Source of the DNA: Escherichia coli
GTDB taxonomy: Bacteria > Pseudomonadota > Gammaproteobacteria > Enterobacterales > Enterobacteriaceae
DNA: 206 nucleotides
NCBI RefSeq assembly: GCF_003334405.1
Contig: NZ_QOWM01000079.1
Strand: one strand, 5' to 3'
How positions within the stretch are numbered: the first letter of the stretch is position 1; every line of letters begins with the position of its first letter. The position numbers and the translations under genes were made by a program. A model generated the notes under the pieces. That model had not been told where the DNA came from and did no database searches. It saw only the letters and a program-made list of their open reading frames with translations. This document shows positions 1 to 206 of the stretch, in pieces.

Positions 1-26
1 CGGCGTGAACGCCTTATCCGGCCTAC
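1..26 (+). repeat. Y-type REP, 5'-truncated by window edge (CGGCGTGAACGCCTTATCCGGCCTAC)
   Basis: Identical to the 3' 26 nt of the full Y REP at 86-119 except for A8 versus G101 in the loop; ends in the characteristic GGCCTAC tail. Confidence 0.8.
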
Positions 27-43
27 GAATGGCGCAAGAATCT

Positions 44-72
44 GTAGGCCTGATAAGCGTAGCGCATCAGGC
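44..72 (-). repeat. Z-type REP (Z2-like), inverted relative to the Y REPs
   Basis: Reverse complement of 44-72 is GCCTGATGCGCTACGCTTATCAGGCCTAC. Imperfect palindrome: 48-54 GCCTGAT pairs with 66-72 ATCAGGC; inner GCG 57-59 pairs with CGC 63-65; AA bulge at 55-56; loop TAG 60-62. Same GCCTAC tail as the Y REP but read on the opposite strand. Confidence 0.75.
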
Positions 73-85
73 ATTTGCCACCACT

Positions 86-119
86 GCCGGATGCGGCGTG
101 GACGCCTTATCCGGCCTAC
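86..119 (+). repeat. Y-type REP, complete (GCCGGATGCGGCGTGGACGCCTTATCCGGCCTAC)
   Basis: Imperfect palindrome: 86-92 GCCGGAT pairs with 109-115 ATCCGGC; 95-98 GGCG pairs with 103-106 CGCC; loop TGGA 99-102; internal mismatch GC/TT at 93-94 versus 107-108. Matches the E. coli REP consensus as I recall it. Confidence 0.85.
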
Positions 120-136
120 GAGTGGCGCGAGAATCT

Positions 137-165
137 GTAGGCCTGATAAGCGTAGCGCATCAGGC
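137..165 (-). repeat. Z-type REP (Z2-like), inverted, second copy
   Basis: Identical in sequence to 44-72 and offset by exactly 93 bp. Confidence 0.75.
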
Positions 166-178
166 ATTTGTCACCATT

Positions 179-206
179 GCCGGATGCGGCGTGAACGCCT
201 TATCCG
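179..206 (+). repeat. Y-type REP, 3'-truncated by window edge (GCCGGATGCGGCGTGAACGCCTTATCCG)
   Basis: Begins with GCCGGATGCGGCGTG exactly as at 86-100 and continues with the AACGCCTTATCCG seen at 8-20; runs off the window end. Confidence 0.8.

Follow-up and report, generated by a model that had tools for sequence, protein, structure and literature searches.

Are the complementary tails of neighboring palindromes in a mosaic repeat array a structural feature in their own right, or does the element bring this complementarity with it? The question is raised by a 206-nt stretch of Escherichia coli DNA (the whole stretch analyzed, hereafter the window) that aligns with 100% identity to E. coli K-12-type genomes (~339,858-340,063), between yahG and yahI. 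The window holds 2.2 copies of a 93-bp tandem unit and is the middle of a bacterial interspersed mosaic element 2 (BIME-2) array, composed of alternating inverted Y and Z2 repetitive extragenic palindromes (REPs), which occupies the K-12 intercistronic region yahG-yahI. A preliminary description had noted that GGCCTAC at 20-26 is the reverse complement of GTAGGCC at 44-50 and that the same holds at 113-119 and 137-143, coordinates that we find to be exact. It had proposed that each unit could fold either as two separate REP hairpins or as a tail-to-tail stem enclosing the linker. We conclude that the complementarity of the tails is very probably a built-in by-product of a known element and not a separate feature.

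The assignment of the repeats to Y and Z2 REPs, named Y-REP and Z-REP in the preliminary description, agrees with published definitions. REPs are imperfect palindromes of 30-40 nt with mismatches in the stem and a conserved GTAG 5' of the hairpin foot (PMC3333891). In the array, Y has a G·T wobble and an unpaired C/T, Z2 has an AA bulge, and GTAG or CTAC is present at 23-26, 44-47, 116-119 and 137-140. In BIME-2 elements, y and z2 REPs take turns in opposite orientations and are joined by a short linker S (PMC3333891), which lies head to head, with an s, l or r motif on the tail side. Here, too, Y and Z2 alternate in inverted orientation, tandem copies are conserved within the locus and copy number varies among strains. 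The complete array of the K-12 allele (L001 2899-3258) comprises 3.9 copies of 93 bp with 96% matches, and contains four Y and four Z2 REPs in alternation. Three of the four Y copies have 0 edits relative to the consensus and one has 1 substitution, all Z2 copies have 0 edits, and the two unit copies inside the window are 95% identical. Each unit runs in the order Y REP (35 nt), tail-to-tail linker (17 nt), Z2 REP (30 nt) and head-to-head linker (11 nt), except that the tail-to-tail linker of the last of the four units measures 16 nt rather than 17. The alternating inverted Y and Z2, conserved tandem copies, extragenic location and strain-variable number are all those of BIME-2 (PMC3333891), the 11-nt and 17-nt linkers lie where its head-to-head linker and tail-side motif would be expected, and we found no difference from it. 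The array is already annotated and the element is known.

The complementarity of the tails arises because Y and Z2 are homologous, inverted, and each equipped with the same GTAG and the same GCC stem base. Two such REPs placed tail to tail would by necessity yield CTAC...GTAG (...GGCCTAC-linker-GTAGGCC...) together with near-complementarity of the whole units. A chance origin was excluded by shuffling: perfect 7-mer inverted repeats with spacers of 3-30 nt occur five times in the window, but only 0.45 times on average in 500 dinucleotide-shuffled versions, of which a fraction of 0.004 had five or more. The null that matters, though, is a pair of homologous repeats that face opposite ways and are complementary for that reason. 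The tetranucleotide itself has a known reader. E. coli K-12 carries tnpA_REP (PMC3333891), whose product requires GTAG and the stem mismatch for both binding and cleavage (PMC3333891), and in the crystal structure of the TnpA_REP complex GTAG is unpaired and splayed across the protein surface (PMC3479197). GTAG is probably conserved because TnpA_REP, a REP-associated tyrosine transposase (RAYT), reads it base-specifically, and not for pairing with a neighboring REP.

A description in terms of seven base pairs is also too narrow. Across the linker, 13 of 14 bp are complementary (13-26 with 44-57 and 106-119 with 137-150), the lone mismatch being C19·T51 (C112·T144 in the second copy), and beyond these 14 bp imperfect complementarity spans the entire Y and Z2; the alternative hairpin is a whole-REP phenomenon. 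Among the seven tail pairs, the three of GGC/GCC (20-22/48-50) are the only ones to overlap with stems of the REPs. The other four, CTAC/GTAG (23-26/44-47), fall outside both hairpins and are able to coexist with them.

To compare these folds we computed energies for natural units and for the whole intergenic region; the window itself cuts two Y copies, whose truncated ends pair artificially. All energies are in kcal/mol and refer to RNA parameters and the + strand (the strand of yahG and yahI) unless stated otherwise. Alone, the Y hairpin reaches -21.3 (-20.9 on the - strand) and the Z2 hairpin -12.9 (-13.2 on the - strand). The CTAC/GTAG mini-helix over the linker contributes just -2.1 (-0.4 on the - strand), and the linker indeed has no palindrome, as the preliminary description had stated. 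The 7-bp tail stem alone has an energy of -12.1 and the 14-bp extended tail stem -19.4. For the Y-linker-Z2 unit, three side-by-side local hairpins total -37.8 (-36.0 on the - strand), compared with -39.2 (-36.2 on the - strand) for the fully zipped Y×Z2 long hairpin, which is the minimum-free-energy (MFE) structure of the isolated unit on both strands and with both RNA and DNA parameters. The proposed choice between two hairpins and a tail stem thus stands for a fully zippered inter-REP hairpin that encloses the linker, which is thermodynamically competitive, but falls for the 7-bp stem, which is not, and four of whose seven pairs occur in both states. For the same reason the fraction of the forced pair 116-140 (0.92-1.00; 0.999 for + strand RNA) is no measure of competition, as this pair is compatible with both REP hairpins, and we took the competition between local and long hairpins from span-limited ensembles. 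The long hairpin is not peculiar to this locus: across 104 distinct natural Y-Z2 tail-to-tail doublets from Enterobacteriaceae, the unrestricted fold beats the local-only fold by a median of ~3 kcal/mol (RNA), and the long hairpin is the MFE structure in most of them. The folding outcome named as refuting in the preliminary description, a stem never competitive with the individual REP hairpins, therefore did not occur, although the structure that competes is a duplex of whole REPs.

Within the array, other pairings prevail. In the ensemble computed for L001 2860-3310, head-to-head Z2(i)×Y(i+1) pairs over the 11-nt linker and nested long-range Y×Z2 pairs dominate and tail-to-tail pairs are minor, and in a series of growing transcripts the MFE fold switches among local, tail-to-tail and head-to-head arrangements as arms appear. 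The fold landscape is degenerate, and the tail-to-tail hairpin is one of many near-isoenergetic folds. The folds open to a single strand of the array are separate REP hairpins with or without the 4-bp CTAC/GTAG mini-helix, tail-to-tail or head-to-head long hairpins, and nested combinations of these. As an upper bound, findpath places the direct-path barrier that separates local hairpins from the long hairpin at 14-16 kcal/mol. Together with ordinary helix-nucleation rates, such a barrier implies that refolding takes many minutes to hours, beyond typical bacterial mRNA lifetimes, and hairpins formed 5' to 3' during transcription should therefore persist. From this we infer a kinetic preference for the individual REP hairpins, which would form first during transcription and are the folds visibly kept by evolution.

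The comparative evidence bears directly on that last point. We scanned one genome per species with the pattern ACGCCTTATCC-N(20-45)-TGATAAGCG, in which the inner arms are fixed while tails, linker and outer arms are free, and obtained 141 matches at 120 loci (1.07 Mb); the Y/Z2 heterotypy of this tail-to-tail sample follows from the search pattern. Both tails are consensus in 91 of the matches, and the deviations are nearly all one-sided. A compensated change at the same tail position was seen in two cases only, CTGC with GCAG, and tail changes at alleles and orthologues of the yahG-yahI array are one-sided in 4/4. Overall, we found no clear compensatory change in the tails among the 141 matches and the alleles and orthologues of the locus. 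Linker length ranges from 6 to 31 nt across loci with no preferred value, and the linker lengthens the tail helix by at least 2 pairs in just 7/106 cases. The window's own linker, GAATGGCGCAAGAATCT, recurs solely at orthologous yahG-yahI loci, in Escherichia albertii, E. whittamii, Escherichia sp. E1V33 and an Escherichia-like contig of a metagenome-assembled genome (MAG); its candidacy as a genome-wide motif was ruled out, similar linkers being confined to these orthologous loci. The REP stems behave differently from the tails. In 315 of 321 REPs, the base by which Y and Z2 differ is paired to the REP's own arm, and in the free arms it is G in 48/48 Y copies and A in 115/121 Z2 copies, so that the mismatch of the Y×Z2 duplex is conserved. 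A Y variant at L008 190-224 (GCGACATGAATGTC / TGCCGGATGCGACATGAATGTCTTATCCGGCCTAC) has its upper stem changed from GGCG/CGCC to GACA/TGTC, two compensatory changes that keep its own hairpin. Of the sampled head-to-head doublets, 36/36 combine one Y-type and one Z-type REP. At the level of sequence comparison, the evidence supports the intra-REP stems and not the tail stem.

What role the tail-to-tail pairing might have on the transcript can be judged from better-studied arrays. In REP325, another BIME-2, the upstream mRNA is stabilized and the downstream gene attenuated about ten-fold in a partly Rho-dependent manner (bioRxiv 10.64898/2026.03.23.713779), and REP325 constructs give transcript ladders inferred to hold about 2, 3 or 4 hairpins (bioRxiv 10.64898/2026.03.23.713779); the three-hairpin species speaks for the single REP hairpin as the acting unit in vivo. 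By analogy, we infer that on the yah transcript the array most likely obstructs 3'-5' exonucleases at successive hairpins and works as a leaky attenuator that depends in part on Rho. The preliminary description had gone further, in suggesting that in a transcript the tail-to-tail stem makes a compound structure of the kind that blocks 3'-5' exonucleases. That this stem is specifically responsible for the block we regard as very improbable. REPs are documented mRNA stabilizers (bioRxiv 10.64898/2026.03.23.713779; PMC12306157) and the inter-REP hairpin is energetically competitive on the coding strand of yahG and yahI; however, in either conformer an exonuclease would meet the Z2 3' arm as the 3' strand of a duplex, and no distinct functional consequence is predicted. 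The REP325 ladders point to single hairpins as the units, the tails show no compensatory evolution, head-to-head and nested pairs outcompete tail-to-tail pairs in the array context, and the barrier would make refolding slower than typical mRNA lifetimes. Mapping of 3' ends, which had been proposed as a check, cannot separate the conformers, since the Z2 hairpin and the long hairpin share their 3' strand, namely the Z2 3' arm. It is likewise quite unlikely that the array owes its instability in DNA to cruciforms or slipped structures promoted by the tail-to-tail inverted repeat. The array is polymorphic in copy number, with alleles of 4, 3, 2, 1 or 0 units, and cruciform formation by REP325 in supercoiled DNA has been asserted (PMC4550694). 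Yet the 4-, 3- and 1-unit alleles, whose loci span 641, 548 and 362 bp, differ by whole 93-bp repeats, so that unequal recombination or slippage between direct repeats is sufficient to explain them, and the recombination of BIME fragments by TnpA_REP seen in vitro is a further sufficient cause (PMC3333891). The suggested preference for cruciform or slipped DNA is thus not needed for the polymorphism. By a crude nearest-neighbor estimate, the extrusion cost is highest for the tail-to-tail unit, at 1.01 kcal/mol/bp; the head-to-head unit would cost 0.94 and single REPs 0.84-0.89. A central spacer of 17 bp would also disfavor cruciform extrusion.

Several observations weigh against treating the complementarity as a mere by-product, and they lead to a more serious alternative. 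At equilibrium, the local-hairpin-only ensemble is a minority, at 4-8% for the isolated unit and a median of ~0.1-0.2% over the 104 distinct natural doublets; inter-REP pairing would dominate if RNA or single-stranded DNA (ssDNA) equilibrates, and the kinetic argument in favor of local hairpins rests on a heuristic direct-path barrier rather than on a folding simulation. In addition, tail-to-tail partners tend to share a 1-nt indel of their outer arms, GATG(G)CG for Y and CGC(C)ATC for Z2. With identical copies collapsed, partners agree in 25/29 cases where random pairing within genomes that carry both variants (L009-L128) predicts 17.0 (P=0.0004); a second count gives 30/36, with 21.8 predicted (P=0.0008). 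Head-to-head partners have no such association (5/10 against 5.0 expected, in one genome). These data could mean that the tail-to-tail Y-linker-Z2 doublet is the true evolutionary and replicative unit, a long ssDNA hairpin that is copied, excised or recombined at the replication fork by the REP transposase and whose complementarity is maintained for that purpose. REPINs, REP doublets forming hairpins, are published and have been reported for E. coli K-12 (PMC3116915). With DNA parameters, both strands of the isolated unit have the long hairpin as their MFE structure, as do most natural doublets with RNA parameters. The yahG-yahI alleles contain 4, 3, 2 or 1 copies of Y-linker-Z2, and where a single copy is present it is a tail-to-tail doublet. 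On the other hand, TnpA_REP binds as a monomer to one REP whose GTAG is unpaired, and its binding to the inverted REP (iREP) was undetected (PMC3479197), which fits a separate REP hairpin and not a zipped doublet. The conserved Y×Z2 mismatch, the wide range of linker lengths and the rarity of linkers that extend the helix all speak against it as well, and the REP-free allele (L007) is a sequence replacement and not a clean empty site. The concordance test draws on a small and phylogenetically non-independent sample of four or five genomes, on loci ascertained by the Y-to-Z2 pattern and on paralogous copies that are non-independent, and REP subfamilies or amplification of whole units could yield the same signal. 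We consider this alternative unlikely, and treat the indel concordance as a lead only, which suggests from sequence that the doublet and not the single REP evolves as the unit.

Comparison with REPINs is instructive here. As described by Bertels and Rainey (2011), REPINs resemble the array in consisting of two inverted REPs and a spacer, in being predicted to form a single long hairpin in ssDNA or RNA, in occurring in tandem clusters and, tentatively, in partner co-variation (PMC3116915). The array differs in that its two REPs are of different types (Y and Z2), so that the long hairpin carries conserved mismatches, and in that the sampled spacers lack conserved length or compensatory pairing. 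The preferred reading remains that the tails match because homologous REPs face each other. In DNA, by analogy with characterized elements, the array may serve as a RAYT substrate and a gyrase site, while its 93-bp direct repeats would expand and contract by recombination or slippage. DNA gyrase binds BIME-2 with high affinity and cleaves it (PMC1475751, citing Espeli and Boccard 1997).

The alleles of the locus offer some further observations. The last unit of K-12 has a 16-nt linker ending in GAGAATT (L001 3213-3228), and the single-unit alleles (L005, L006) carry a similar 16-nt linker with the same ending; the terminal unit may be ancestral and the internal units with 17-nt linkers later expansions. 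In E. albertii (L017, ~3830-4185), an 80-nt stretch that repeats the yahG 3' end separates two Y-linker-Z2 units, in a register that differs from that of the E. coli 93-bp unit. One E. coli lineage without REPs (L007 178-272) has in their place an unrelated segment of ~50 nt with a CCCTTCTCCC...GGGGAGAGGG palindrome, which may resemble the "box C" repeat.

The position of the array relative to yahG also varies. In K-12, the first Y starts 12 nt past the yahG TGA (L001 2884-2899), within the <16 nt of the rule for REPs as translational down-regulators. Ribosomes that terminate at a stop codon with a REP no more than 15 nt away are reported to stall (PMC12306157, citing Liang et al. 2015). Alleles from other E. 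coli lineages and from E. albertii (L004, L006, L017) have a different, 22-nt spacer after the yahG stop. Because of this difference between spacers of 12 and 22 nt, any effect on the upstream gene, extrapolated from the reported cases, may differ between strains. Directly after the yahG stop codon (L001 2887-2917), CCTAC can pair with GTAGG of the first Z2, and the flanking GTTCA pairs with TGAAC in the loop region of the first Y to give a hairpin of -21.4 kcal/mol, a competitor of the first Y REP. No terminator-like site (a G+C-rich hairpin followed by a T run, as in Rho-independent terminators) was found on either strand of L001 2600-3500. With regard to known mRNA stabilizers and 3' untranslated region regulators (malE-malF, REP325 in yjdMN), the yah array is alike in having REP hairpins between co-oriented genes, and an exonuclease block with attenuation of read-through may be expected by analogy.

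The array also matches an RNA family. In the window, the Rfam model naRNA4 (RF02564, derived from the REP325 array; gathering score 59.5) scores 72.4 and 66.6 bits on the - strand and 52.7 and 42.6 on the + strand, and over the full locus 78, 78 and 72.4 bits on the - strand. The first of the - strand matches covers the Z2-S-Y head-to-head pair at 47-116 as two hairpins, and a second, truncated match lies at 140-206. The likeness to naRNA4/REP325 lies in the same Y-S-Z2 head-to-head pair, modeled as two separate hairpins; in contrast, the yah array is at another locus, and the strand with the highest scores runs antisense to yahG and yahI. Since all Z2-S-Y units of the unrelated yah locus exceed the gathering score on the - strand, the model, judged by its sequence matches, behaves as a generic BIME-2 detector and not as a specific small RNA gene model. 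As a transcribed, HU-binding RNA, naRNA4 is proposed to condense the nucleoid; this role (PMC4550694) is disputed, with no measurable effect on compaction in a later study (bioRxiv 10.64898/2026.03.23.713779). Matches to Rfam microRNA families in the window were dismissed as noise from generic hairpins (E-values 0.15-9.8, far below thresholds).

From its 5' end, the window opens with the 3' part of a Y-type REP on the + strand (1-26, in iREP orientation and ending in CTAC), which is cut by the window start and is the second of the four Y copies. Its complete version is TGCCGGATGCGGCGTGAACGCCTTATCCGGCCTAC (L001 2992-3026), which the naRNA4 model aligns as a hairpin, and GGC (20-22) of its + strand tail GGCCTAC (20-26) forms the base of its own stem. 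The unstructured, locus-specific tail-to-tail linker of 17 nt (27-43) leads to a Z2-type REP in REP orientation, with GTAG at its 5' end (44-73, +), in which GTAG (44-47) is free, GCC (48-50) starts the stem and the stem pairs 48-54 with 66-72. An 11-nt head-to-head linker follows (TTTGCCACCAC, 74-84), which matches the S linker of BIME-2 in position and length. The complete Y REP at 85-119 (+) has a stem of 86-93/108-115 and 95-98/103-106, with the wobble at G93·T108, C94 and T107 unpaired, and the tail GGCCTAC at 113-119. The second tail-to-tail linker (GAGTGGCGCGAGAATCT, 120-136) has two substitutions relative to 27-43, and the complete Z2 REP behind it (137-166, +) carries GTAG at 137-140 and a stem of 141-147/159-165 and 150-152/156-158. 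A second head-to-head linker (TTTGTCACCAT, 167-177) and the 5' part of the next Y REP (178-206, +), cut by the window end, complete the window.

The neighboring genes are all on the + strand of the window, and an annotated open reading frame, yahH, lies over it. A review of the E. coli y-ome describes yahH as "filled with REP23 sites" (PMC11551758), REP23 being the EcoCyc name. The frame (window 1-206, +; L001 2936-3232) is merely one that runs across the REP array, its product having a period of 31 residues (MAQESVGLISVAHQAFVTIAGCGVNALSGLR...), and its annotation depends on the strain, as a protein, a pseudogene, "hypothetical" or none.

The scan pattern also matched contigs labeled Oscillospiraceae, Bacteroidales, Lachnospiraceae, Spirochaetales, Bathyarchaeota and Micromonospora (L016, L036, L057, L076, L078, L118, L119, L123, L126). 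Intact REP doublets in such contigs, at least L016, L036 and L126, are likely enterobacterial contamination or mis-binning, and the remaining off-taxon matches may be due to chance. A MAG contig labeled "Pseudocitrobacter" (L060) encodes YahG and YahI with ~98-99% protein identity to those of E. coli.

Overall, the tail-tail interpretation is supported in part, on thermodynamic grounds only. REP and BIME arrays, GTAG tails and the long hairpins of inverted REP pairs have been known for decades, and the alternative hairpin is ordinary. The use of our results is mainly corrective: the hairpin in question involves whole REPs and is one of many near-degenerate folds, whose conformers 3'-end mapping cannot tell apart. 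Beyond this, unit-wise polymorphism at yahG-yahI, along with an indel concordance within genomes that is absent from head-to-head partners, leads to the tentative and rather doubtful proposal that in enterobacterial BIME-2 it is the tail-to-tail doublet, and not the head-to-head "BIME" pair, that is gained, lost and co-evolving, as an E. coli counterpart of the REPIN in which a long ssDNA hairpin would keep the two REPs matched. For the REPIN/RAYT field, co-variation between partners could be of use in deciding which form of REP replicates as a unit in E. coli.

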